From Candidatus Microgenomatus sp. (lineage in GTDB: Bacteria; Patescibacteriota; Minisyncoccia; UBA6257; GWB1-50-10), in NCBI GenBank assembly GCA_020724805.1, contig DYGI01000001.1, positions 111,157 through 175,156 on the forward strand: DNA of 64,000 bases, in the 5' to 3' direction. Each line of letters opens with the position of its first letter. Position 1 is the stretch's first letter. The position numbers and the translations under genes were made by a program. Below are positions 9,246 to 51,346 of this stretch, piece by piece. The notes beneath the pieces are model-generated. The model was not told where the DNA came from. It did no database searches and saw nothing but the letters and a program-made list of their open reading frames with translations.

Positions 9246-11000
9246 ATGGAAACCAAAATGCCAAAACCGTACGAACCCTCTTCGGAGGACACCCGCAGCG
9301 TTATCGCGCCGGCGGGAGCCGAGATGTCGTCGAACTATTTGAAGCTTGGGGATTACTACGCAAAAACGCTTTTTGTGTTCACCTATCCGCGCTACGTGGC
9401 AAGCGGGTGGTTTTCGCCGCTCATCAACCTCCCTGACATGCTCGATATTTCCATTTTCGTGCACCCCACCGATACCGGGGTAGCGCTGCGAAATCTCAGG
9501 AAAAAAGTTGCGCAAGTGCAGGCGGAGATGATGGAACGCGAAGAAAAGGGATTCGTGCGCGATCCCGTGCTCGAGACCGCATACCATGACCTTGAAAACC
9601 TCCGCGATACGCTCCAGCAGGCGCAGGAAAAGCTCTTTAAAGTGGGAGTCTACATCACGCTCTATGGAAAGTCTCCCGAAGAACTTTCAAAGCTTGAGGA
9701 TAAAATACAGTCCATTTTGGAATCCAAGCTGGTGAACATAAAACCGGCGCTCTTCCGCCAAGACGAAGGGTTTCTCTCGGTACTCCCTACCGGCTCGGAC
9801 AAACTCGAGATCAATACCCCCATGAACTCGGGGCCTGCATCTTCGCTTTTCCCGTTCGTATCGCCGGACCTCACTTCCGACAAGGGAATTCTCTACGGCA
9901 TCAATCTTCATAATCAATCACTCATCATTTTTGACCGTTTTTCCCTCGAGAATGCGAATGCGGTGGTGTTCGCGAAGTCCGGTTCCGGAAAGTCCTATGC
10001 GACAAAACTCGAGATTTTGCGCTCCATGATGATGGGTACGGACATGATCGTTATTGACCCGGAGAATGAGTACCAAAATCTCGCGAACGCGGTCGGGGGA
10101 AGTTATTTCAAAATCTCTCTCACCTCCCCAAGCCATATCAACCCCTTCGATATCCCGCTGATTCCTGAGGGAGAGGAACCGTCCGACGTGTTCAAATCCC
10201 ACATTTTAAACCTCACCGGCCTCGTGAAGCTCATGCTCGGTACGGTCACGCCGGAAGAAGATTCACTCCTCGACCGCGCCATTACGGAAACCTACGCATC
10301 CCGCGACATCAACGCGGAAAATTTTGGAAGCATCAAAGAATTGAATCCTCCTCTCCTTGAAGACCTTCAAACGGTGCTCGCGAATACCGAGGGAGGAAGG
10401 TCCATCGCCACTCGTCTTGAAAAATTTGTGAAGGGTTCGTATGCGGGATTTACGAACGCGCCCACGAACATCGACGTAAAGAATCGGCTGATTGTGTTCT
10501 CTATCCGCGACCTTGAAGAGGAGCTTCGCCCTATCGCGATGTATATCGTATTGAACTTCGTGTGGAACTTGGTTCGTTCCGAACTCAAGCGCCGCCTCCT
10601 TATCATCGACGAGGCGTGGTGGATGATGAAATATAAGGATTCCGCATCGTTCCTCTTCGGCCTCGTAAAGCGCGCTCGAAAATACTACCTCGGCATCACC
10701 ACCATCACTCAAGATGTGGAGGACTTCCTTCGGTCCGAATACGGCCGCCCTATCGTCACCAACTCTTCCATTCAACTCCTCATGAAACAATCGCCCACGT
10801 CCATTGAAGCGGTCGCGTCCGCATTCGACCTCACCGAGGGTGAGAAAATGCTCCTCCTTGAAGCGGGGGTTGGCGAGGGGCTTTTCTTTGCGGGTTTGAA
10901 ACATGTGGCGGTAAAAATCATCGCGTCCTACACCGAAGATCAGATTATCACCACGAATCCGGAGCAAATGCTCGAAATAAAAGGATTACGGAAGGAGTGA
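9246..11000 (+). CDS. VirB4/TrbE/CagE-family type IV secretion ATPase (C-terminal ATPase part)
   Basis: 584 aa; Walker A FAKSGSGKSYAT, Walker B LLIIDEAWWM (the DEAW motif characteristic of VirB4/TraC). Confidence 0.8.
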   Translation: METKMPKPYEPSSEDTRSVIAPAGAEMSSNYLKLGDYYAKTLFVFTYPRYVASGWFSPLINLPDMLDISIFVHPTDTGVALRNLRKKVAQVQAEMMEREEKGFVRDPVLETAYHDLENLRDTLQQAQEKLFKVGVYITLYGKSPEELSKLEDKIQSILESKLVNIKPALFRQDEGFLSVLPTGSDKLEINTPMNSGPASSLFPFVSPDLTSDKGILYGINLHNQSLIIFDRFSLENANAVVFAKSGSGKSYATKLEILRSMMMGTDMIVIDPENEYQNLANAVGGSYFKISLTSPSHINPFDIPLIPEGEEPSDVFKSHILNLTGLVKLMLGTVTPEEDSLLDRAITETYASRDINAENFGSIKELNPPLLEDLQTVLANTEGGRSIATRLEKFVKGSYAGFTNAPTNIDVKNRLIVFSIRDLEEELRPIAMYIVLNFVWNLVRSELKRRLLIIDEAWWMMKYKDSASFLFGLVKRARKYYLGITTITQDVEDFLRSEYGRPIVTNSSIQLLMKQSPTSIEAVASAFDLTEGEKMLLLEAGVGEGLFFAGLKHVAVKIIASYTEDQIITTNPEQMLEIKGLRKE

Positions 11001-11502: not shown

Positions 11503-12173
11503 AAAAAATCGTCTTTACCATATTAGTAGTCCTCATTTCCCTCGCGGCGGGAGCTGCAGGAATTTTCGCACAAAGTCAGCCCACCCAAGCGTTCGTAACT
11601 TGGCGCGCCGAGAACTTTTACCCTTCGTATTTCGAAGGTCGAGTCCTTCCTTCCTCGGGATCTTCTGTATCTCTCGCGGTGGAAGTAACGCAGGGCGGAA
11701 TTTTACGAGACCTTGCGCAGGCGGACATTGGTTGGCAGGTGGACGGAAAATTCATCGGGAGCGGACGCGGAATGAAGCAGGCAAAATTCACTGCCACAAA
11801 GGGGAGTGGAAACTCTCATTTCGTTCGAGTGTCTATCGCGCAAAATAGCGAGCTCGTTGAAGTGTCAGTTCGCATTCCCACCACTGCGCCCACGGTGGTT
11901 ATCGATGCACCGTATGTCGACAAACGAGGCACGGAGGGGAAAATTACACTTTCTTCTCTCCCTTATTTTTTCAACGCCTCTTCACTCGACGATTTTCGCT
12001 TTTCGTGGACCATTGATGGGGAACGTAGAGAGGTTGGAAGCGATACTACCCTTACCATCGCCGACGCTGCAAGCATCGTCGCGCGAACTTTTCGTATAGA
12101 CCTCGAAGCCTTGAATACTTTAAACCCGATGGAAACCGCGACCGCACGAAACCAATTCGCGATTACCCCATGA
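11499..12173 (+). CDS. secreted protein of the T4SS-like locus
   Basis: 224 aa with signal peptide MKKIVFTILVVLISLAAGAAGIFA; 4-nt overlap with the previous gene. Confidence 0.4.
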   Translation: MKKIVFTILVVLISLAAGAAGIFAQSQPTQAFVTWRAENFYPSYFEGRVLPSSGSSVSLAVEVTQGGILRDLAQADIGWQVDGKFIGSGRGMKQAKFTATKGSGNSHFVRVSIAQNSELVEVSVRIPTTAPTVVIDAPYVDKRGTEGKITLSSLPYFFNASSLDDFRFSWTIDGERREVGSDTTLTIADAASIVARTFRIDLEALNTLNPMETATARNQFAITP

Positions 12174-42671: not shown

Positions 42672-43035
42672 AAAAAGAGTCCAGCGGGCGCTCGCATCGA
42701 GGGCCGTACGCTGGACTCGCAGGTTCTCCGCTTCTGCGGAGGCTCCGGATTGCTTCGGAGCGAAGCGTGTGGTGGAGAGGGCTTCGTTCCCCACGGACGA
42801 GGAAAAACGCTCTCCACGCGTTTGGGACGGCCGGCGATGAATGAGTGCCGGCGAGTCAAGGAACAATGCTCGGAGGACCGAGCGCTATTACGATATTCCC
42901 GCTCGCGTTATCCGTCAAACCAAAAGCCCCGAAGGGCTTCTATCGGTGCAGTCCAAAGGACTGCATTCAAACTGGTGCGCCCGGTGGGGCGCGCGTTATC
43001 GATATAACCGCCACGGTGCCGCAGGGCGGCCGGTT
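42672..43035. ncRNA. candidate structured non-coding RNA (identity and strand unresolved)
   Basis: 364-nt ORF-free interval in a tightly packed genome with many nested perfect hairpins (GAGTCCAGCG...CGCTGGACTC 10 bp; CTCCGC-TTCT-GCGGAG; GCTCCG...CGGAGC; TGCAGTCC-AAA-GGACTGCA; GCGCCC-GGTG-GGGCGC). Confidence 0.35.
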
Positions 43036-43380
43036 TTACCGCACTGTTGCTACGATTTTCTTGAATACCGCGGGCTCGTCTTTCGCGAGCATGGCGAGCA
43101 TTTTCCGGTCCAGCTTCACCCCCTTCTTTTTCATTGCCGAGATGAGCGTGCTGTACTTCATCCCCGCCTCGCGTGCTCCGGCGTTCACCCGCGTGTTCCA
43201 AAGCGCCCGGTATTCCCGCTTCTTCTCTTTCCGGCCCTTGAAGCTGCGGCTCCACGCGTGGAGGAGCGCTTCCTTTGCGAGGCGCTCTTTGGATCGGCGG
43301 CCCCACTTGAAACCTTTCGTGTGTTTCAGGACTCGCTCGCGTTTCTTGTGTGCAATTTTCCCACGTTTTACGCGCGTCAT
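43036..43380 (-). CDS. rplT: 50S ribosomal protein L20
   Basis: 114 aa, MTRVKRGKIAHKKRERVLKHTKGF N-terminus. Confidence 0.9.
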   Translation of the reverse strand: MTRVKRGKIAHKKRERVLKHTKGFKWGRRSKERLAKEALLHAWSRSFKGRKEKKREYRALWNTRVNAGAREAGMKYSTLISAMKKKGVKLDRKMLAMLAKDEPAVFKKIVATVR

Positions 43381-43386
43381 ATTTTA

Positions 43387-43566
43387 TTAAAGGTATTTTC
43401 TTATCATTTTCGCGCCGTCATCCAACCCGCGCGAAAGACTTTTTCGGCGCATCTGCTTCGAGCTTTTGTTCCCGCGTGAGTGGCCGAGCGCCATCGCGCG
43501 ACGAACCACTTTTCCGCGCTTGGTGACGCGAATCCGGTCTCTTACGCTTTTTCGTGTTTTAGCCAT
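43387..43566 (-). CDS. rpmI: 50S ribosomal protein L35
   Basis: Hand translation: MAKTRKSVRDRIRVTKRGKVVRRAMALGHSRGNKSSKQMRRKSLSRGLDDGAKMIRKYL (59 aa; below the ORF-track cutoff). Confidence 0.85.
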   Translation of the reverse strand: MAKTRKSVRDRIRVTKRGKVVRRAMALGHSRGNKSSKQMRRKSLSRGLDDGAKMIRKYL

Positions 43567-43567
43567 A

Positions 43568-44059
43568 TTATTTCTTCTTCTCTATTTGAGTAACAAATCC
43601 GCGTCCCGCAAATTTCGGCTCCATCGTCATTACGTGAGGCACTGTTATCATCGGGAGAAAACCTTTGAGTTTCTGAAGCCCCCATTCTTTGTTTCCTTTT
43701 TCGCGGCCACGGAGGAATATCATTACCTCCACTTTGTGTCCCTCTTCCAAAAATTCCGCCGCCTTTTTCGCCTTCACCTCAAGGTCATTTTTTGCGGCGC
43801 GTGGAGTGATGCGCACATGCTTCAACTCCATCACCTTCTCCGCATGCCGTTGTTTCTTCGCTTCCTTCTCCTTCTCGTACCGGAACTTATCGTACGAGAG
43901 GATGCGGGCCACCGGGGGAGTTACGGTCGAGGTAACCTCGATAAGGTCCAACCCCTGTTCGGAGGCTTTTTTGAGCGCCTCCCCAAAGGAGAGCACGCCG
44001 AGGTTCTTGCCGTCCGCGTCTATCACCCGAAGTTCCCGCGCGGTTATTTGATTATTTAT
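43568..44059 (-). CDS. infC: translation initiation factor IF-3
   Basis: IF-3 N- and C-domains (RVIDADGKNLGV; KVEVMIFLRGRE); the conserved N-terminus INNQITARELRV extends upstream of the GTG used by the track, suggesting an AUA/AUU-type start, as is typical for infC; exact start uncertain. Confidence 0.8.
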   Translation of the reverse strand: MNNQITARELRVIDADGKNLGVLSFGEALKKASEQGLDLIEVTSTVTPPVARILSYDKFRYEKEKEAKKQRHAEKVMELKHVRITPRAAKNDLEVKAKKAAEFLEEGHKVEVMIFLRGREKGNKEWGLQKLKGFLPMITVPHVMTMEPKFAGRGFVTQIEKKK

Positions 44060-44110
44060 TCGGTAGCGGATGCCGATATGGTATGATAGGCACTGAGAAA
44101 AGTAAACCCC

Positions 44111-44422
44111 ATGAGAATTTCTGCGCCTGCGGTGACCAAATATATGAAATACGTGCTCGGGTTTATCGAGCTCTTCCTCGGGTTTCGCGTGCTCCTCATG
44201 TTCCTCAAAGCGAGCGATGTGGCGCCCATCGTGGACCTGCTCTATCGCGTGACGGACGTTATTATGGTGCCTTTCGCGGGCATCTTCCGGGATATCGCCC
44301 TTCGGAATGGGAGCGTTATTGACTTGAATGCACTTTCTTCAATGGTGGGGTACCCCATCGTGCTTTACCTTTTGAACGAATTGCTCCACCTCATCGCGAA
44401 AGACGAACCGTCGAAGCGATAA
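44111..44422 (+). CDS. YggT-like small membrane protein
   Basis: 103 aa, two TM helices; weak resemblance to the YggT/Ycf19 family. Confidence 0.3.
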   Translation: MRISAPAVTKYMKYVLGFIELFLGFRVLLMFLKASDVAPIVDLLYRVTDVIMVPFAGIFRDIALRNGSVIDLNALSSMVGYPIVLYLLNELLHLIAKDEPSKR

Positions 44423-44429
44423 AAAAAGA

Positions 44430-44465
44430 AAAGGGCGCAACCAGAGTATGGTGCGCCTTTTCATG
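44430..44465 (+). terminator. rho-independent terminator
   Basis: GGCGCAACC-AGAGTAT-GGTGCGCC stem followed by TTTTC. Confidence 0.5.
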
Positions 44466-44597
44466 ATGAGAGAAATTCATTTGTGCAACTTTGCGAGTTG
44501 CGTATAGTGAGCTTACGCTCGAAGGACGGTATTCCCTTGTTCGCGTACCGATATTAGTATAGCAATCCTTCGCGGCGCGTATTGTGGATAACTTTTA

Positions 44598-44630
44598 AAC
44601 AAAAAGAGCCCGATGTATTGGGCTCTTCGC
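44598..44630 (-). terminator. rho-independent terminator downstream of tmk and tmRNA
   Basis: GAGCCC-AATACATC-GGGCTC followed by TTTTT on the minus strand. Confidence 0.5.
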
Positions 44631-44650
44631 AAACGTGAAACCGATTCCTA

Positions 44651-45328
44651 CTACAGATCTTTCGGGAGCAAAGGCATGATGGCCGCCTGTACGCCGAGGA
44701 AAACCTCTTCCTCGGATTGCTCCGCGTTCACCACCGCGACCTTGCCGGCAAAGGGGCCGATGTAACGCGCCTTGAGGTAATTCGCGCGTGCCTTCTCGAG
44801 CCTTTCCTTTTTCTCGAAGAACTCGGTGTGGTCGCGCCCTTTTGCGATGCGCCGTATCGCTTCCTCGGCCGAGAGGTCGAGCAAGATGGTGAGGTCGGGC
44901 CAAATCATCTGCGGCCCGACGACGTCCTCGTGGAGCTTGATGAAGTCCTCCGGTGGCCGCCCCGAGAGCATCCCATAGGCGACCGTGGAGAGCGCATAAC
45001 GCTCTTTGAGGTACGGGCACGGAATTCCGAGCTTCGCGCGCTTTTCAAAGAGCGGGCGCATGAAGCAGGCGATCAGTTCCGCGCGGTTCAGGACGTAGAT
45101 GCGCTGGAATTCGTACGGATCCTCCGGGCGAGGGAGCTCACCCTTCAACATCTTCCGGATGGTCCTTCCGAGCGGGGTGCCGGAATCCGGGTCATCGCTC
45201 GGCTCGCTTGAGAACGGGACCTCGTAGTTGGTGAGTTCCCCGAGCCAGTCCCGTACCTTGTGCATCTGCGTCCACTTTCCCGCACCGTCGATGCCCTCAA
45301 ACGCGATGAGTAATCGTAGCGGTTCCAT
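44651..45328 (-). CDS. tmk: thymidylate (dTMP) kinase-like
   Basis: P-loop FEGIDGAGKWTQ (a variant of FEGxDGxGKST); start trimmed to MEPLRLL because the longer ORF would overlap the tmRNA 3' end. Confidence 0.65.
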   Translation of the reverse strand: MEPLRLLIAFEGIDGAGKWTQMHKVRDWLGELTNYEVPFSSEPSDDPDSGTPLGRTIRKMLKGELPRPEDPYEFQRIYVLNRAELIACFMRPLFEKRAKLGIPCPYLKERYALSTVAYGMLSGRPPEDFIKLHEDVVGPQMIWPDLTILLDLSAEEAIRRIAKGRDHTEFFEKKERLEKARANYLKARYIGPFAGKVAVVNAEQSEEEVFLGVQAAIMPLLPKDL

Positions 45329-45423
45329 GCCGCCTCCTTGTGATTTGGTGATTGGTTCGTGCTCCCTCCGTTCTAACGGAGAATAGGGGAAAGCACAAGA
45401 CCGCCTTTCGGCGGTCTTGTTGA

Positions 45424-45742
45424 TGGTGGACATGGTCGGAGTCGAACCGACGTGTAACGCTTTCGGTAAAAAGCCCTCTACAAGCTTATTTCTCTTACGA
45501 GAACAAATGGTTCGTAATTTTGCGCTCCGCTACTGAACCGTCTTACGGAGCGCGAGCCTCATTTATTACACCGGAGAACCCCTATGAGGCGTCGGGAGCC
45601 GATGTCCTACTTACGCGAAAGCGTAAGCGGGAGCTGCAACTTTAGAGTTGGCAGTTTTAGGTTTGACCATGGATTTACGAGCGAATGGTCGGCTCGGCCT
45701 GCAAGCTCTCTACTTCACGCGCTAACAAGGCCCGTCATGCCC
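45424..45742 (-). ncRNA. ssrA: tmRNA (ssrA)
   Basis: 5' GGGCATG pairs with 3' CATGTCC-ACCA, including a G3:U70 wobble (AlaRS identity element); T-arm GTCGG-TTCGACT-CCGAC; PK1-like GGCCGAG...CTCGTAAA; internal tag ORF GCC AAC TCT AAA GTT GCA GCT CCC GCT TAC GCT TTC GCG TAA (ANSKVAAPAYAFA) at 45611-45652; immediately downstream of smpB. Confidence 0.8.
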
Positions 45743-45743
45743 G

Positions 45744-46184
45744 TCAGCTATGTGCGCGGCGAAGCTCTCGCTCCACATCACGCTTTTTAATGACCTCGCG
45801 CTTGTCGTGCTTCTTTCTCGCCTTTCCGAGTCCAAGCTCGATTTTCACCAGCGCGCGGTGAGTATACACCTTCAAGGGAATTAGCGTCAAACCACTTTCC
45901 AATTTACCCGTCAAGTAACTGATTTCTTGGCGCGAGAGGAGCAGTTTCCGCGTCCGCGACTCATCATACCCGTCGGGCGCGTTCCCAGGCTGGAATGAGT
46001 GAATAGAGGCCCCTACGAGGTATGCCTCGCCGCCCCGGATGACCGCGCGGGCGCCCGCGAGGTCCATCCGCCCGAGCTTCGCGGACTTCGTCTCGTGGCC
46101 CGTCAAAACCACGCCCGCGACATATGTTTCCTGTATGTCGTAGTCAAACCGCGCCTGCCGATTTTCTGATAACGTCGCCATCAC
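45744..46184 (-). CDS. smpB: SsrA-binding protein SmpB
   Basis: 146 aa; SmpB core motifs and a basic C-terminal tail. Confidence 0.9.
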   Translation of the reverse strand: MMATLSENRQARFDYDIQETYVAGVVLTGHETKSAKLGRMDLAGARAVIRGGEAYLVGASIHSFQPGNAPDGYDESRTRKLLLSRQEISYLTGKLESGLTLIPLKVYTHRALVKIELGLGKARKKHDKREVIKKRDVERELRRAHS

Positions 46185-46208
46185 TTTTCAGCGTACTATA
46201 CTGAACCT

Positions 46209-46865
46209 ATGGCGGGAATACCGAAAAAGACGTTACGGGCGCTCATTGCGTTGAAGCCGGTATCCATCGCGCTCACTGGTTCTGCGGGTGGAGGGGAGAT
46301 GGGAAAGCGGAGCGATGTGGAATCGGCCGTCATTTTCCAGGGCCGGAACTATATTTCACGCCGAAAACTGAAGAAATTCACCACTGAGAGGTTGAAGATA
46401 TACCCATTTCGCTTTGAGGAGATATTGAAATTGAAGGCGAAAAGCCCGTTTGCCAACAAGTTCTATTTCTGGTGGCTTTCGCACAACTCCAAGACTGTGT
46501 ACGGCGAGCGGATTCTAGAAAACGTTAAGGTAAAGCTTACTGCGAGCGATCTTCGCGAAGAAATTGACCATGCCCGCGGTGTAGCGCTCGCCGCGATGGT
46601 TTCGCTCCGGAACGGCGACAAGGAAACCGCGCGGTGGGGATTCACAAAATCTTGCCTTCTCGCGACCGCCGCGGCGGTGGGCCTTAAAAGAAAGTGCCCG
46701 GCGAGCTCATACCAGGAAGCGGTGAAAATGGGGAGCGTGGTATTCCCGCGCTGGAAACGTCTCATACGGAAAGCGGAGCAGATGCGGCGCAGGGGAGGTA
46801 CGCCGAGCGAACAGGATATATTTGATAACCTGGAGTGTCTTTACTTCATACGAACGAACCTGTAG
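46209..46865 (+). CDS. hypothetical protein with NTase-like (GS...DxE) and HEPN-like (R-x4-H) motifs
   Basis: 218 aa; LTGSAGGGEMGKRSDVE resembles a minimal nucleotidyltransferase signature; LREEIDHARG fits the HEPN Rx4-6H motif. Confidence 0.3.
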   Translation: MAGIPKKTLRALIALKPVSIALTGSAGGGEMGKRSDVESAVIFQGRNYISRRKLKKFTTERLKIYPFRFEEILKLKAKSPFANKFYFWWLSHNSKTVYGERILENVKVKLTASDLREEIDHARGVALAAMVSLRNGDKETARWGFTKSCLLATAAAVGLKRKCPASSYQEAVKMGSVVFPRWKRLIRKAEQMRRRGGTPSEQDIFDNLECLYFIRTNL

Positions 46866-46945
46866 AGGACACTTCTTTGAACGCGTTACACTCCGGTTCA
46901 ACTCCGGACATGTCCACAAATAAAATGTTCTCGTTTCCAAAATAG

Positions 46946-47524
46946 ATGCAAATTTTAACTGACATAATTAATGCACTGAATAGTTATTCAGATACTATTA
47001 CGGCGATTTCAGCTGTAATCGTTGCTGTTTTGGCTCTATTTGGTTTGCGGGAATGGAAACTACAAACAAAGGGAAAAACAAACTACGAAATCGCACGAAG
47101 GTATTTAAAGGCGGCCTTACGATTAAGAGACGAATTAAAATACGTTAGGAACCCATTTATTCCTCTTTCGGAAACAAACGACGCTCTGAAGGAAAGCGGC
47201 ATTGAAAGTAAGGACCATTTAGACGAAAATCGAGCGGTCTATTCGCGTCGGTGGAAAAGAGTTCAAGAGGCCTGGACGAATTTAGAAATCGAGCTTCTCG
47301 ACGCAGAAGTATCTTGGGGAAACATTGCGGTTTCCGCCTCTAAACCATTGCTTGATGCCACGAAAAAGCTTTTTGCCGCTCTAACAATGTATCTAGATGG
47401 TCAGGGTCGAGATGATAAGTTGATTTATAATCATGGAAGCCTTGAAAAACCCGACGAATTTTCAGGGCAAGTTGACCAAGCAATCGAGCAAATTCGGGAT
47501 TTCCTACGCCCCCATCTACTTTGA
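46946..47524 (+). CDS. hypothetical N-anchored helical protein (AT-rich islet)
   Basis: 192 aa, N-terminal TM; low-GC codon usage. Confidence 0.4.
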   Translation: MQILTDIINALNSYSDTITAISAVIVAVLALFGLREWKLQTKGKTNYEIARRYLKAALRLRDELKYVRNPFIPLSETNDALKESGIESKDHLDENRAVYSRRWKRVQEAWTNLEIELLDAEVSWGNIAVSASKPLLDATKKLFAALTMYLDGQGRDDKLIYNHGSLEKPDEFSGQVDQAIEQIRDFLRPHLL

Positions 47525-47538
47525 AATTTCAATGGGAA

Positions 47539-47575
47539 CACCCGCCGAGAGGCGGGTGTTTATTTACCCCTCACC
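47539..47575 (+). terminator. hairpin + T-tract terminator module, copy 1
   Basis: CACCCGCC-GAGA-GGCGGGTG then TTTATTT then ACCCCTCACC. Confidence 0.45.
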
Positions 47576-47604
47576 GCGCAAAAAGGTGTAAAATTACAAT
47601 TGAT

Positions 47605-47847
47605 ATGAATTGGCTAGAGAAAAATTGGTTTAAAGCCTCTGTCGTAGTAATTCTTATTATCACAATCGGTGGCAGTTTCTATTGGTTTCAGTGGAGACCG
47701 AGAAAAATTAGAGTTGAGTGCAATGATTCTGCATTCAGGTCTTCGATGGAATCGTACGATGCGACGTCATTTACGCAAAGCGGGAGAATGGATTTGAAAG
47801 ATAAATTTTATAAAGATTGTTTAAGATACAACGGCTTTGAGGAATAG
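47605..47847 (+). CDS. small membrane protein (AT-rich islet)
   Basis: 80 aa from the internal ATG (MNWLEKNWF), one TM helix. Confidence 0.35.
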   Translation: MNWLEKNWFKASVVVILIITIGGSFYWFQWRPRKIRVECNDSAFRSSMESYDATSFTQSGRMDLKDKFYKDCLRYNGFEE

Positions 47848-47860
47848 CCCTTAATTAGAA

Positions 47861-48073
47861 ATGGGATTTTTTAGATCTTTTTTCGGTCACAAAATAATTT
47901 GTCCACACTGCAGCGAAGAAATTGAAGTAAAGTCTGCCAAGGAAATGGGCCAGATTGAATTGCTAGGAAAGGACATGGAAGGTTATATCCATCTACTACA
48001 CAAAGGACAATGTGGCGCGCATATTATTTGGAACACTCTTTCTGGAAAAGCCGAGCTCGGAGAAAATTCTTAG
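47861..48073 (+). CDS. small zinc-ribbon-like protein (AT-rich islet)
   Basis: 70 aa with CPHC...C..H pattern. Confidence 0.35.
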   Translation: MGFFRSFFGHKIICPHCSEEIEVKSAKEMGQIELLGKDMEGYIHLLHKGQCGAHIIWNTLSGKAELGENS

Positions 48074-48085
48074 CCTGACCTAGAT

Positions 48086-48460
48086 ATGTTCAAGGAGAAA
48101 TTTGATAAAAAATTTCCTGAAGCAAAAATACTTCGGGAAATGGAGCTGAAGCGCGCATCACGCAATCTCTATAATCGATCCTCTTTCGGAAGAGCAACAT
48201 CCGTGATTTACTTTATCGTTGCTATAGCAAGCATTTTTGTATATTGGAATTTTTTTGAAGCGAACATTTCTCTTTCAATATTTTACGGACTGATTACTTG
48301 GTTTGTCGTCACATATATTTTTGACAAAATCCTTATTAAACTTTTCGGCGTAGGAAAAACCGTAAAAAAAGTAAATGACGAGGAAATAGAAGTTGCTGGA
48401 AAACAGCTTGAGGAAACATTGAAAGAAAAGGGCAAATCAATGGATGATTTTTTGAAATAG
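48086..48460 (+). CDS. small two-TM membrane protein (AT-rich islet)
   Basis: 124 aa; central hydrophobic helices, charged termini. Confidence 0.4.
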   Translation: MFKEKFDKKFPEAKILREMELKRASRNLYNRSSFGRATSVIYFIVAIASIFVYWNFFEANISLSIFYGLITWFVVTYIFDKILIKLFGVGKTVKKVNDEEIEVAGKQLEETLKEKGKSMDDFLK

Positions 48461-48495
48461 CTCACGCGTAGTAAAAAGTAGCTACTAACAAATGT

Positions 48496-48528
48496 CCGCC
48501 TCTCGGCGGGTATTTATTTACCCCACCC
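48496..48528 (+). terminator. hairpin + T-tract terminator module, copy 2
   Basis: CCGCC-TCTC-GGCGG then GTATTTATTT then ACCCCACCC; same trailing motif as copy 1 with the loop sequence complemented. Confidence 0.45.
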
Positions 48529-48594
48529 ACCCAGTGTGTCCCCCCTAGGTAGGGACGCTTGAGCTATTAGGGCCCGCTATTCAATTGTTTTTCT

Positions 48595-50205
48595 TTGTGC
48601 GATAGAGTGAATGAAATGCTCCGTGACGAAGTTCTGAAACTCGTACAAAAACACGCTCCGAAGGGGACGGCGGTAACGCTTTCCGTACCCGAAGACGCGC
48701 GTCTTGGTCACTATTCCACGAATGTGGCGTTCGCGCTTTCCAAAATAGAGAAAAAATCACCTTTGGAAATTGCCGAACGTATTGCGTCTGACGTTACAAG
48801 TTCCAAGTCCCCAGCCATTAGTCGCGCAGTCGCTGCCGCTCCGGGATTCATCAACTTTTTCCTCGCGCCCAAAGCACTCCATGAGGAATTGAACGCTATC
48901 GCAAAAGCGAAGAAGAATTATGGCCGGTCAAAAGTTAAAAGTTCCAAGTTAAAGGTTCAAGTCGAGTTCGTCTCCGCAAACCCGACCGGACCCCTCACGC
49001 TCGCGAACGGCCGCGGTGGATTTTTGGGTGACGTACTCGCGAACGTCTTGGAAAACGCAGGCGCCGCGGTGGAGCGCGAATACTATGTGAACGACACGGG
49101 GAACCAGATCTTCACGCTCGGGAAATCGCTCCTCGCTTCGCTCGGCTTCGTGCCGGACGATGAAACTTTATACAAAGGCGAGTACGTCTCCGAATGGGCC
49201 GCGAAGCACAAGAAGGACGTGGAGAAGATGCGCAAAGACCCCGCGAAGCTCGGTGAAAAAGCGGCGGGCGATTTTTTGAAACTCATCAAACGCGCATTGG
49301 AAAAGGAAGCACATATCAAGTTTGACCGGTACACGTCCGAGAAAAAGAACATCCACGCAAAAGGGTACGTAAAGAAAGCGCTCGCACTTTTCAAGAAGAA
49401 AGGCGTGACGTACGAGAAAGAAGGCGCCACGTGGCTCAAAACCACCGCGGAAGGGGATGACAAGGACCGCGTGCTCGTGACGGGCGGCGGCTTCCCCACG
49501 TACTTCCTCGCGGACGCGGGCCACTACCTCGAAACCAAAGAGCGCGGGTTCAAGGCGAAGATAAATATCCTAGGCCCCGACCACTACGGATACGTGGCGC
49601 GCATCCAGGCCGCCGCGAAGCTCGTGGGCCTCGCAAACTCCAAGGTGCTCATCACGCAGGCGGTGCGCCTCATTCGGGGCGGCGCGGAGGTGAAGATGTC
49701 GAAGCGCAAGGGGAACTTCGTGACGTTTGAGGAAGTGGTGGAAGAGGTCGGGGCGGACGCCGCGCGCTTTTTCTTCCTCTCCGTGGCGCCCGAGTCCCAC
49801 ATGGACTTCAACCTGGACCTCGCAAAGGAACGCTCCAACAAAAACCCCGTCTACTACGCCCAGTACGCCTACGTCCGCGCGAAGGCGGTGGTCGCAAAAG
49901 CCGGGAAGATCGCGGGCAAGCCCGACCTCTCTTTACTCAATACCCCCGACGACGCGGCGCTCCTCTTCCAGCTCTCCCGCCTCCCCGAGGTTCTCGCCGA
50001 CGCCGCAAATGACTACGCCGTCCACCGGCTTACGCAATACGCCTCTACCCTCGCCCGCGCATTCCACACCTTCTACGAAAAGGAGCACGTGGTAGGCGAA
50101 GCCCCCGCGCTCGCCGCCGCACGGCTCGCGCTCGTAAAGGGGAGCATTATCGTGTTTGAAAACCTTTTCCGCATTCTCGGTATCAGCGCTCCTTCAAAAA
50201 TGTAA
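48595..50205 (+). CDS. argS: arginine--tRNA ligase
   Basis: Class I HIGH-type motif (SANPTGPLTLANGRGG), Add-1 N-terminal domain, C-terminal DALR anticodon-binding domain; 536 aa. Confidence 0.9.
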   Translation: MCDRVNEMLRDEVLKLVQKHAPKGTAVTLSVPEDARLGHYSTNVAFALSKIEKKSPLEIAERIASDVTSSKSPAISRAVAAAPGFINFFLAPKALHEELNAIAKAKKNYGRSKVKSSKLKVQVEFVSANPTGPLTLANGRGGFLGDVLANVLENAGAAVEREYYVNDTGNQIFTLGKSLLASLGFVPDDETLYKGEYVSEWAAKHKKDVEKMRKDPAKLGEKAAGDFLKLIKRALEKEAHIKFDRYTSEKKNIHAKGYVKKALALFKKKGVTYEKEGATWLKTTAEGDDKDRVLVTGGGFPTYFLADAGHYLETKERGFKAKINILGPDHYGYVARIQAAAKLVGLANSKVLITQAVRLIRGGAEVKMSKRKGNFVTFEEVVEEVGADAARFFFLSVAPESHMDFNLDLAKERSNKNPVYYAQYAYVRAKAVVAKAGKIAGKPDLSLLNTPDDAALLFQLSRLPEVLADAANDYAVHRLTQYASTLARAFHTFYEKEHVVGEAPALAAARLALVKGSIIVFENLFRILGISAPSKM

Positions 50206-50217
50206 GAAAAAGGTATT

Positions 50218-50251
50218 GCTTCATTTTTGAACATATGCGTAAAAATGAAGC
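50218..50251 (+). repeat. perfect 11-bp AT-rich inverted repeat (hairpin) after argS
   Basis: GCTTCATTTTT - 12-nt loop - AAAAATGAAGC. Confidence 0.5.
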
Positions 50252-50263
50252 AGGAAAGAAAGA

Positions 50264-50323
50264 AGGTGGGGAGTAGGATAGGGAGTGGGATAGGGAATGG
50301 GATAGGGAGTGGAATGGGGAGGG
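50264..50323 (+). repeat. tandem 12-nt G-rich repeat (about 5 copies)
   Basis: GGATAGGGAGTG / GGATAGGGAATG / GGATAGGGAGTG / GAATGGGGAGGG preceded by GTGGGGAGTAG; lies in the convergent intergenic region. Confidence 0.6.
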
Positions 50324-50404
50324 AAAAGAGGAACTTTAGTTTACCGCTCCCGGTGGTTTTTTAAGCTTCAATCATGTCGTATATACGACATTGTTGAAGC
50401 TGAT

Positions 50405-51346
50405 CTAAAGGGTGAATGTCGTCATTTGGAACACGACGAAGAGTACGTATACGAAAACAAGGCCGATACCTTCAAGGCGCGTGAGCTTTTTATCCGTTTC
50501 GTAGAAGCGGTTCAGAACCGCGACAAGCACCAAAGTAAAAATAAGGAGGAGATAATACGAAGAGCCGACTTCTGTTGTCATTGGCTTCACAATCGCAAAG
50601 ATGCCGACGATTGCCGGGTTCGCGATGGTGGAGCCGATGAGGTTGGAGAGCGAGAGCTCCTCCACGTTGCGGCGCCACGCGCGGATGGCAACGATGATTT
50701 CCGGAAGATTCGTGCCAATGCCGAAGAGGACGATGCCGACGACGAAAGGAGAGATGCCGAAATCTTTTGTGAGCAGCAGCGTGACCTCAATGATGTAGTG
50801 GGAAATAACCAAAACCGCCGCGAGACCGAGTATGATGAAAAACGTTTTTTCCGCAATGCCGCGGACAGTGTCGTGGCGCTCAAACTTTTCGTGGGGTCCT
50901 CGCGCCAAGAGGTACCACAGCACGAGTCCGTACCCCACGAGGAGCGCAATGCCGTCCACGCGGCCCAAATTTCCGTCCAAGCCGAGAAGGAGGGGCGCCA
51001 TTACAAATACGACGATGGGGAGAAAGGTTCCCGGTTTCGCGCCCGTTTGTATATTGCGGTTCAGTATTGCGGAGAACCCAAGGACCAAGCCGAAAGTCAC
51101 AAGAATGCCGCCGAAAAGATTACCGAGCGAAAGCGCGCGAATATCAAGGAGAAGGGAATTTACGCCCACCGCGAGCTCGGGGAACGAGGTTAAGAATCCG
51201 AGGATAATGCCGAACGCAAATATTTTCACACCGAGCGCCATACCGAGGCGCTTCACGTTCGTGACAATGAGGTCCGCGGATTTGCCGAGGAGATAGAAAA
51301 GAATAACGAGCGCGAGGGAGAGGCCGAATGTTCCGAGGTCAGGCAT
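50405..51346 (-). CDS. CaCA-family Na+/Ca2+ (cation) antiporter
   Basis: Two alpha-repeat motifs (GKSADLIVTNV...SFPELAV and GTNLPEIIVAI), ~10 TM; start trimmed to MPDLGTFG. Confidence 0.75.
   Translation of the reverse strand: MPDLGTFGLSLALVILFYLLGKSADLIVTNVKRLGMALGVKIFAFGIILGFLTSFPELAVGVNSLLLDIRALSLGNLFGGILVTFGLVLGFSAILNRNIQTGAKPGTFLPIVVFVMAPLLLGLDGNLGRVDGIALLVGYGLVLWYLLARGPHEKFERHDTVRGIAEKTFFIILGLAAVLVISHYIIEVTLLLTKDFGISPFVVGIVLFGIGTNLPEIIVAIRAWRRNVEELSLSNLIGSTIANPAIVGIFAIVKPMTTEVGSSYYLLLIFTLVLVAVLNRFYETDKKLTRLEGIGLVFVYVLFVVFQMTTFTL

Follow-up and report, generated by a model that had tools for sequence, protein, structure and literature searches.

The window, by which we mean the whole 64-kb stretch of DNA that was analysed, carries a tmRNA gene (ssrA), smpB, a lineage-specific gene here called ORF218, an inverted copy of the ssrA 3' end, a low-GC islet and argS (Table 1). 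The tag peptide of the window ssrA is ANSKVAAPAYAFA. Its 3' end is made up of a hairpin segment designated U1 (GGGCTTTTTACCGAAAGCG), the junction GCGTTACAC, a type-A T-arm (GTCGG-TTCGACT-CCGAC) and the acceptor strand CATGTCC, followed by ACCA. ARAGORN found this single tmRNA gene and no second one. The order of smpB and then ssrA is retained across 53 related loci, and the argS(-)/smpB(+) arrangement is common to many more distant relatives. The arrangement of the locus is identical in four independent assemblies of the same organism, so an assembly artefact was excluded. Another contig (L007), considered as a possible variant of the islet, was discarded since its sequence is identical to that of the window.

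Table 1. Features of the ssrA to argS region (positions of the window, strand where given, and basis or remarks).
Feature	Position	Strand	Basis or remarks
ssrA, functional tmRNA gene	45424..45742	-	ARAGORN; Rfam RF00023, 112.7 bits, full length
Inverted-repeat left arm, real ssrA 3' end	45426..45482	-	Repeat finder, allele comparison
smpB	45744..46184	-	Pfam SmpB, E 9e-43; directly upstream of ssrA, canonical pairing
ORF218, lineage-specific gene	46209..46865	+	218 codons; divergent from smpB
Inverted ssrA 3'-end copy, inverted-repeat right arm	46861..46917	+	Repeat finder, pattern scan, Rfam
U2 segment AGGACACTTCTTTGAAC	46866..46882	+	Matches the U segment of the real L089 ssrA, not that of the window's ssrA
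Junction GCGTTACAC	46883..46891	+	Invariant in all ssrA genes and all intact copies
Type-B T-arm TCCGG-TTCAACT-CCGGA, acceptor CATGTCC, discriminator A, C	46892..46917	+	Identical in window, L087, L091 and the real L092 ssrA
Islet module 1	46918..47575	+	GC 0.38-0.44; I192, hairpin, motif
I192, membrane-anchored protein	46946-47524	+	Module 1
Hairpin	47538-47560		Module 1, after I192
Motif TTTATTTACCCC	47559-47570		Module 1
Islet module 2	47576..48511	+	GC 0.35-0.40; I80, I70, I124
I80	47605-47847	+	Module 2
I70, zinc-ribbon-like	47861-48073	+	Module 2
I124, small membrane protein	48086-48460	+	Module 2
ATGTCC, hairpin CCGCCTCTCGGCGG, TATTTATTTACCCC; tentative trace of far-end copy	48491..48524	+	Analogy with L092 and with the L087 decayed copy plus terminator
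argS, conserved right flank	48616..50205	+	Pfam listing; divergent from smpB throughout the bacterial group

The last codons and the stop of ORF218 (CTG TAG) fall within the ssrA-like copy. Among 5.8 billion proteins this ORF had five homologues, all Brennerbacteria-like and one of them from a Candidatus Brennerbacteria genome. It gave a weak Pfam match to NTP_transf_2 (E 0.007) and no match in NCBIfam, and its AlphaFold model (pLDDT 60), in which the C-terminal domain is predicted to be helical, gave weak ANT(4')/HEPN-like structural matches, all with E above 0.03. A GS...DxE motif was also spotted by eye. We regard ORF218 as weakly nucleotidyltransferase-like. Its identification as a recombinase was rejected on the NTP_transf_2 signature, the structural matches and the NCBIfam result.

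The ssrA 3' end (45426-45482) and the copy (46861-46917) form a 57-nt inverted repeat, 77% complementary, which is the longest one in the 8 kb searched (43000-51000). The copy begins at the TGTAG containing the ORF218 stop codon, and the DNA that precedes these 57 nt does not resemble ssrA. A degenerate pattern that fits the ssrA end as well as the copy (GCGTTACACNNNGGTTCRACTCCNNNCATGTCCAC) matched just these two places in the 64 kb, and 100 dinucleotide-preserving shuffles gave no match. A restricted Rfam search gave a partial tmRNA match at 46878-46919 with 11.2 bits (E 0.022), the threshold being 47. The T-stem has changed from GUCGG/CCGAC to UCCGG/CCGGA and the T-loop shows one G-to-A change. 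After the final C of the copy there is AAA where ssrA has CCA, and the type-B arm region contains the 10-nt palindrome GGACATGTCC. The copy is derived from the ssrA 3' end. An earlier note, made from the letters of this DNA, had described a diverged ssrA 3' end at 46881-46920 of the plus strand. Both that stretch and the ssrA 3' end read as it quoted them, the resemblance stands against shuffled controls and is longer than it had noted, and the T-stem changes are indeed compensatory, with two base pairs altered on both sides. Its distance of 1.1 kb beyond smpB needs correction, as the copy begins 0.68 kb beyond the smpB start codon.

The set of relatives comprised the contigs of the ORF218 homologues and one Brennerbacteria genome obtained from a pattern scan of reference genomes. 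Six of these relatives were informative, and the Brennerbacteria comparison rests on about six distinct loci. In all six, ssrA and smpB are on the minus strand and an ssrA-like copy is on the opposite strand beyond smpB, with the same position and orientation in L087/L096, L091, L089/L090, L184 and L092. In L087/L096 and L091 the copy comes after the ORF218 stop codon, as in the window, and the 35-mer GCGTTACACTCCGGTTCAACTCCGGACATGTCCAC, which runs from GCGTTACAC to CCAC, is identical at 35 of 35 positions across the window, L087 and L091. The ORF218 DNA next to it is about 70% identical between the window and either of these two loci, and the adjacent 17-nt U segment agrees at 12 of 17 positions; at 70% identity the chance of 35 consecutive matches is about 4e-6. 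L184 and L089/L090 have an ORF218 nearer to that of the window (80-84% DNA identity), followed by a decayed copy (GCGACGTTCRCCTCCGACCATGT...) in which the 5' strand of the T-stem is gone. Written as a pattern, the decayed form is GCGACGTTCNCCTCCGAC. L092, the closest relative by smpB (90% DNA identity), has neither ORF218 nor islet; after its decayed copy come a terminator hairpin and argS. The inverted copy was absent in 40 or more further relatives that are more distant (smpB at most 68% identical), all of them with argS(-)/smpB(+)ssrA(+).

Being shared by the Brennerbacteria loci and absent farther out, the inverted copy is an old feature of the lineage and not a recent rearrangement of this genome. 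The decay plus inversion that had been proposed for this genome does not agree with a copy that is inverted likewise in all the Brennerbacteria loci examined. With regard to the origin of the first copy, a single inversion of smpB-ssrA was excluded because both outer flanks match the arrangement of the distant relatives. A remnant of an ancestral ssrA beside argS was also rejected, given that distant relatives have smpB and then ssrA, divergent from argS.

The real ssrA genes and the copies differ in the alleles of two segments. For the T-arm, allele A (GTCGG-TTCGACT-CCGAC) is present in the real ssrA of the window and of L089, allele B (TCCGG-TTCAACT-CCGGA) in the real ssrA of L092 and in all intact copies, and allele B' (CCCGG-TTCAACT-CCGGG) in the real ssrA of L087, while the decayed copies derive from type A. 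For the U segment, U1 is present in the ssrA of the window and L092, U2 in the ssrA of L089 and in the copy of the window, and U3 in the ssrA and the copy of L087 as well as in the copy of L091. The combinations U1+A, U1+B, U2+A and U2+B are all present, therefore recombination between the U and T-arm segments is required. The sole sequence lying between them is the invariant GCGTTACAC, which we infer to be the recombination junction. The real ssrA of L092 is window-like up to GCGTTACAC and then changes to type B, and both its terminator and the gene that comes next are others (orf176, with no Pfam match, in place of tmk). Therefore, exchange at the 5' edge of the T-arm also affects the working gene. 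In L087 the two arms are identical at 58 of 60 positions, and their sole difference is one compensatory T-stem pair. Judged from these alleles, the compensatory T-arm of the window's copy is simply the working tmRNA allele of its sister genome L092. Its maintained stem had been taken to suggest an attP-derived remnant; the same UCCGG/CCGGA arm works in the real L092 ssrA, so selection in place is not needed.

Homology between the window and L087, between the window and L091, and between L087 and L091 ends at the last bases of the copy (position 46920 in the window; blastn). What comes right after it differs at each locus: the four-gene islet in the window, a single inositol-3-phosphate synthase gene (ino1) in L087, and about 790 nt of unrelated DNA in L091. 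The ino1 gene of L087 is bracketed by the intact copy (10652-10711) and by a decayed type-A copy in direct orientation (11777-11806) with a terminator hairpin after it. The layout of L091 is alike, with an intact and a decayed direct copy around its 790-nt insert. Target repeats on both sides were seen in L087 and L091, and the window has on the far side just ATGTCC and a hairpin at 48491-48509. There, ATGTCC directly precedes the hairpin, in a layout resembling the copy plus terminator of L092 and L087. By this analogy, the stretch listed last before argS in Table 1 is possibly, and tentatively, the last trace of a displaced far-end copy with its terminator; a search for a decayed far-end copy in the window did not exceed shuffles. 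Cargo-free sites with only the decayed copy were found in L184, L089 and L092. In L089 an IS30-family transposase lies beside the site and the gene order with argS is broken.

The earlier note, which took the copy for an attP-derived remnant, had named relatives that lack the islet and still have the 40-mer as evidence against its reading. L087 and L091 carry the identical 35-mer with other cargo, and L092, L184 and L089 hold the decayed version and no islet. These five relatives contradict the copy as a remnant of the element that brought this particular islet. The origin from a tmRNA 3' end and the position at an edge of foreign DNA do hold, and a reading as an attachment site fits the relatives.

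The G+C content is about 0.55 in the flanks and 0.35-0.44 from the copy to about 48510. The low-GC islet that had been noted is therefore real and does start at the edge of the copy, while its right boundary, previously set at 48545, is nearer to 48511 by comparison with the relatives. The islet (about 46918-48511, some 1.6 kb) consists of two modules with four small ORFs (192, 80, 70, and 124 codons), none of which gave a significant family match. A 29-nt direct repeat (D12, the hairpin plus TTTATTTACCCC; 47542-47570 and 48496-48524, 83% identical) flanks the three right-hand ORFs. The motif TTTATTTACCCC is confined to this locus within the window, so that it was rejected as a general genomic signal; in L087 it marks the left edge of a conserved block upstream of argS.

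I192 has 67 homologues of 40-65% identity in diverse Patescibacteria, where they are single genes in variable or defence-like neighbourhoods (for example, HsdR plus DUF4268, or DUF3800). Members of the I124 family from Adlerbacteria, WWE3 and Parcubacteria share 65-84% identity, and in Adlerbacteria the family is found within an accessory gene cluster starting just downstream of a tRNA-Asn. Apart from this tRNA-Asn, no tRNA-like fragments adjoin the homologues of I192 and I124 elsewhere, and no repeat was found beside the tRNA-Asn/I124 cluster within the sequence examined. The islet genes were also considered as a defence system and rejected as such, the only match being a marginal one to a 4TM effector for I124 (E 0.01).

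No integrase or recombinase was found in the five ORFs with Pfam, PHROGs and PADLOC. The precomputed Pfam listing, which covers about 10 kb on either side of ORF218, contained no integrase, in agreement with the earlier statement that the islet has no integrase gene. Scanning IMG/VR with GGTTCRANTCCNNNCATGTCCAC gave 79 matches, all of them tRNA-Ala or other tmRNA ends and none with the GCGTTACAC context or the type-B arm. The copy and the islet had no blastn match in GenBank phages, and the viral collections contained no loci encoding relatives of I124 or I192. The comparison with attP sites that had been suggested yielded no phage or viral attP with the GCGTTACAC context or type-B arm of the copy, and no circular form, attP-bearing element or phage with the copy sequence was found in the viral and phage collections. 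In the distant relatives, repeats were searched for with the ssrA 3' end of each locus as the query. L102 and L159 have 18-nt direct repeats downstream of ssrA. L162 has a 23-nt direct repeat 2.3 kb from ssrA, which encloses DUF433, an HTH-type ORF (by eye) and DUF4238, with no integrase. These repeats indicate that small integrase-less islands bounded by ssrA-end repeats are normal in the related group.

In attention to the shared breakpoint, the differing cargo, the repeats and cargo-free sites of the relatives and the mosaic alleles, the explanation that we favour, with moderate confidence, is that the copy would be a conserved pseudo-ssrA attachment site collecting integrase-less cassettes. 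The ssrA 3' end, including the small hairpin, the T-arm and the acceptor, would have become fixed in inverted orientation in the smpB-argS gap of an ancestor of Candidatus Brennerbacteria, and since then mobile DNA whose usual target is the ssrA 3' end may have used it as a secondary landing site. An incoming circular cassette would carry its own ssrA-like stretch with a type-B T-arm and acceptor. A site-specific recombinase, acting in trans or since lost, would join the cassette and the resident copy by a crossover close to the invariant GCGTTACAC, either at the T-arm or immediately upstream of it. The cassette-borne type-B end would then remain on the left with the cargo immediately after it, and the older type-A end with its terminator would be displaced to the far side, where it would decay. 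In the window, the cargo would be the two-module 1.6-kb low-GC islet with its four small accessory genes, and the far-end copy would be almost gone. The recombinase, the direction and order of events and the present-day activity of the site are what we infer from the loci compared.

Two findings run against the simplest form of this model. The intact copies have a well-formed U allele like that of the tmRNA of their own lineage, and the cargo-free sites are decayed along their whole length. Therefore, a simple GCGTTACAC crossover into a decayed resident copy is insufficient. The incoming DNA may have brought the whole 57-65 nt, or ssrA may also contribute by gene conversion. The favoured explanation is further weakened by the lack of an integrase and of any attP or circular form in our searches, and by the missing clear far-end repeat in the window. 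The copy might also be a maintained device, that is, a decoy site diverting tmRNA-targeting mobile DNA from the essential smpB-ssrA pair or one half of an inverted repeat that exchanges 3' ends with the working tmRNA gene by conversion or inversion, a proposal to which we give little weight. Such a device would have as its signatures a 35-mer that does not vary, L087 arms that differ by one compensatory pair and the occurrence of the four U/T-arm combinations. If the exchange version were true, an essential RNA would have its T-arm and acceptor renewed time and again from a reservoir in the chromosome.

Other explanations must be considered. The copy could be an inert relic with no present role, an inverted ssrA fragment left between smpB and argS by one ancient rearrangement or secondary-site integration, beside which a non-essential divergent gap gains and loses accessory genes by illegitimate or homologous recombination. 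The lack of an integrase nearby and of any attP or circular form in our searches would be expected in this case, and the same can be said of the missing clear second repeat in the window, the decaying copies of L092, L089 and L184, the IS30 transposase and gene-order break at the same spot in L089, and the I192 homologues, which are single genes with no tRNA-like sequence within 1.5 kb. However, three independent cargo boundaries fall on the same nucleotide, and direct-repeat copies bracket the cargo in L087 and L091. Moreover, the type-B 35-mer is invariant despite about 30% divergence of its neighbourhood and the decay of the other copies, and a neutral relic should not stay identical. On balance, we consider an inert relic possible but unlikely. 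A smaller probability corresponds to a recombining pair of inverted repeats, in which gene conversion or inversion of the segment holding the ssrA 5' part, smpB and ORF218 would make the copy a periodic ssrA 3' end or a reservoir of alleles, and islands would have been acquired while ssrA faced argS. The presence of the four U/T-arm combinations between ssrA and copies is in line with this proposal, as are the arms of L087, identical at 58 of 60 positions and one compensatory pair apart, the U segments of the copies, which match tmRNA alleles of the same lineage, and the encoded CCA that the L087 copy retains. A terminator-like hairpin is likewise present after the real ssrA, after the decayed copies of L087, L091 and L092 and after the intact L091 copy. 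Nevertheless, the flipped form was seen in no genome or contig, with exact look-ups of ORF218, I192 and tmk and all the relatives giving one arrangement, and the present orientation is that of the distant relatives. The window arms, only 77% identical, would be a poor substrate for homologous recombination, and decay of the copy is tolerated in three genomes.

Since the coding region of ORF218 ends inside the copy, where its stop codon lies, it may be asked whether the copy acts as RNA, as a tRNA-like 3' module of the ORF218 mRNA that would be a processing or stability signal or a decoy binding SmpB. Its perfectly paired T-stem and the invariance of the 35-mer in three genomes would agree with such a role, but L184 and L089 hold an intact, well-conserved ORF218 followed by a decayed copy, and the 5' acceptor strand and D-loop analogue of a tRNA-like domain are absent. 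Besides, the minimum-energy fold of the isolated RNA does not contain the T-arm and is no more stable than shuffles (z -1.2), and covariation is nil since the intact copies are identical. As for an intrinsic terminator or structured 3' UTR of ORF218, the copy is not followed by a run of U (T in the DNA) and the terminator scan does not flag it. It is very unlikely, then, that the copy works as an RNA element. Least probable of all is that it forms the acceptor piece of a second, two-piece (permuted) tmRNA with the coding piece downstream, as might be suggested by Rfam, where tmRNA_permuted matches weakly at 46892-47058 (15.9 bits, E 0.48). Both this score and that of the standard tmRNA model are far below the gathering threshold (47), the 5' acceptor strand would have to lie inside the foreign I192 coding sequence, and ARAGORN sees one tmRNA gene only. 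The downstream partner is missing in L087 and L091, by which this proposal is effectively refuted.

The ends of tRNA and tmRNA genes are classic docking sites of islands, while little is known about the gain and loss of accessory genes in the streamlined genomes of the Candidate Phyla Radiation. Our results suggest a Brennerbacteria lineage with a fixed inverted pseudo-ssrA site that exchanges small integrase-less cassettes, whose genes, as seen here, encode membrane proteins of unknown function and, in one case, an inositol-3-phosphate synthase. If confirmed, the site would provide a marker sequence for mobile cassettes and for the missing recombinase in uncultured bacteria. It would also mean that such sites escape island finders that look for direct repeats after an intact gene. 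The work of Williams reportedly deals with the sublocation preference of integrases and with 'traffic at the tmRNA gene'.

Islander-type islands are located at the 3' end of a tRNA or tmRNA gene and are bounded by the regenerated gene and a displaced 3' fragment (PMC4383910). As in these islands, a fragment of the target tmRNA 3' end, with T-arm and acceptor, lies at the exact edge of low-GC foreign DNA, and the islet has a patchy distribution, being absent from L087, L091, L092 and L089. The replacement T-arm allele would come from the incoming DNA, the recombination junction, here deduced from sequence, is placed at the T-arm, and direct-repeat fragments surround the cargo in relatives of the window. 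Unlike them, the fragment is on the opposite strand to the intact ssrA, beyond smpB and ORF218, so that it lies upstream of smpB and not downstream of ssrA, and the islet is not between gene and fragment. The target is a pseudo-gene fragment and not a working gene, no integrase was found in the five ORFs or within about 10 kb on each side of ORF218, and the fragment is conserved across the lineage while its cargo changes.

Dehalococcoides has several small ssrA islands delimited by repeats of the ssrA 3' end, with cargo that varies by strain (PMC3146451; PMC2764846). Some of them have no integration genes and have been interpreted as cis-mobilizable elements gathered by accretion (PMC3146451). 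The 20-bp repeats of Dehalococcoides are direct, in tandem and downstream of the real ssrA, and many of its islands carry a serine-recombinase module, DsiB (PMC3146451; PMC2764846). The small size, the absence of an integrase in some islands, the insertion in the T-loop region and the differing cargo are common to both systems, whereas here the copy is inverted, 57 nt long and on the other side of smpB, and none of the loci showed a recombinase module. With respect to the features of a cis-mobilizable cassette, no integration genes were found in the islet or within about 10 kb of ORF218; L087 and L091 show two ends, which the window does not show clearly. The ssrA repeats of L102, L159 and L162, which belong to the same broad group, resemble the present case in their 18-23-nt ssrA-end repeats and in a small integrase-less accessory island, but they are direct repeats placed after the working ssrA, as is usual. 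Another known type of system is that of invertible segments of DNA, with rearrangement between inverted repeats. The two inverted copies, which enclose 1.4 kb with the 5' part of ssrA, smpB and ORF218, and the mosaic exchange of alleles are reminiscent of it, whereas the flipped form was not seen, there is no invertase gene alongside and the arms share only 77% identity in this genome. While it does not have the direct orientation downstream of the intact gene and the integrase of a classical island, the locus would work like a tmRNA-gene integration site.

The sequence of L092, the closest Brennerbacteria relative by smpB, differs from that of the window throughout from the ssrA T-arm onward. 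Its working ssrA bears the type-B T-arm, the allele of the intact inverted ssrA 3'-end copies beyond smpB, and is followed by a new terminator, unlike that of the window. A 176-codon ORF, for which Pfam gave no match, takes the slot held by tmk in the window, L087 and L089, and tmk was not found anywhere in the 8-kb L092 locus. In L097, the closest more distant relative, infC-rpmI-rplT directly follow ssrA, while ssrA and infC are separated in Brennerbacteria by tmk plus a small ORF; therefore, the slot downstream of the working ssrA looks like another insertion point.

The type-B arm creates a palindrome, GGACATGTCC, that straddles the 3' strand of the T-stem and the acceptor strand and that is lacking in the type-A arm of the window's own ssrA. 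This palindrome could be the core of a protein-binding site. An additional insertion able to form a hairpin, immediately before the 3'-terminal region, makes the ssrA genes of L089 and L090 approximately 40 nt longer than those of L087, L092 and the window.

Coordinates of the features described in the window and in related loci
Feature	Locus	Position	Strand	Remark
ssrA	L089	8656-9015		
Small GIY-YIG (homing-endonuclease-like) ORF	L087	9270-9515		
Small GIY-YIG ORF	L090	9134-9397		
Small GIY-YIG ORF	L089	915-1199		
IS30-family transposase	L089	10661-11644	-	NCBIfam E 6.5e-55
PD-(D/E)XK nuclease-family ORF	L097	5283-5948	-	argS-smpB gap
Perfect 10-nt palindrome GGACATGTCC	window	46904-46915		type-B arm
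Working ssrA and downstream ORF	L092	3994-4942		JAZDNP010000013.1
Slot downstream of ssrA	window	44651-45328		
ssrA-infC region	L097	6446-7325		outgroup
29-nt direct repeat (hairpin + TTTATTTACCCC)	window	47542-47570, 48496-48524		
I124	window	48086-48460		small membrane protein
Tandem 12-nt repeat, GGGAGTAGGATA and variants	window	50269-50316		

Small GIY-YIG ORFs were found in the ssrA-smpB gap of some Brennerbacteria relatives and, in L089, adjoining a tRNA-Arg; none lies between ssrA and smpB in the window. The IS30-family transposase of L089 directly adjoins its decayed ssrA-like copy, and on its far side the argS gene order is broken. Where Brennerbacteria carry the lineage-specific ORF218 and the ssrA-like copy, L097 has the PD-(D/E)XK ORF, with a cysteine cluster at its C-terminal end. 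Beyond argS, before the next gene (a minus-strand membrane protein of the Na_Ca_ex family), there are three overlapping 24-nt copies of the GGGAGTAGGATA tandem, spaced by 12 nt and amounting to about four units.

The 29-nt repeat, which encloses the three right-hand ORFs of the low-GC islet, may represent a second kind of insertion site. The hairpin loops of its two copies, GAGA and TCTC, are mutual reverse complements, and TTTATTTACCCC, absent elsewhere in the window, is found again in the corresponding locus of both L087 and L091. The family of the islet protein I124 keeps 65-84% identity across widely different Patescibacteria lineages (Adlerbacteria, WWE3, Parcubacteria); for an accessory gene, such conservation is unusual. 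In Adlerbacteria, the gene cluster that immediately follows tRNA-Asn includes a member. With respect to known proteins, I124 showed only weak similarities, to YqhR and 4TM-effector.
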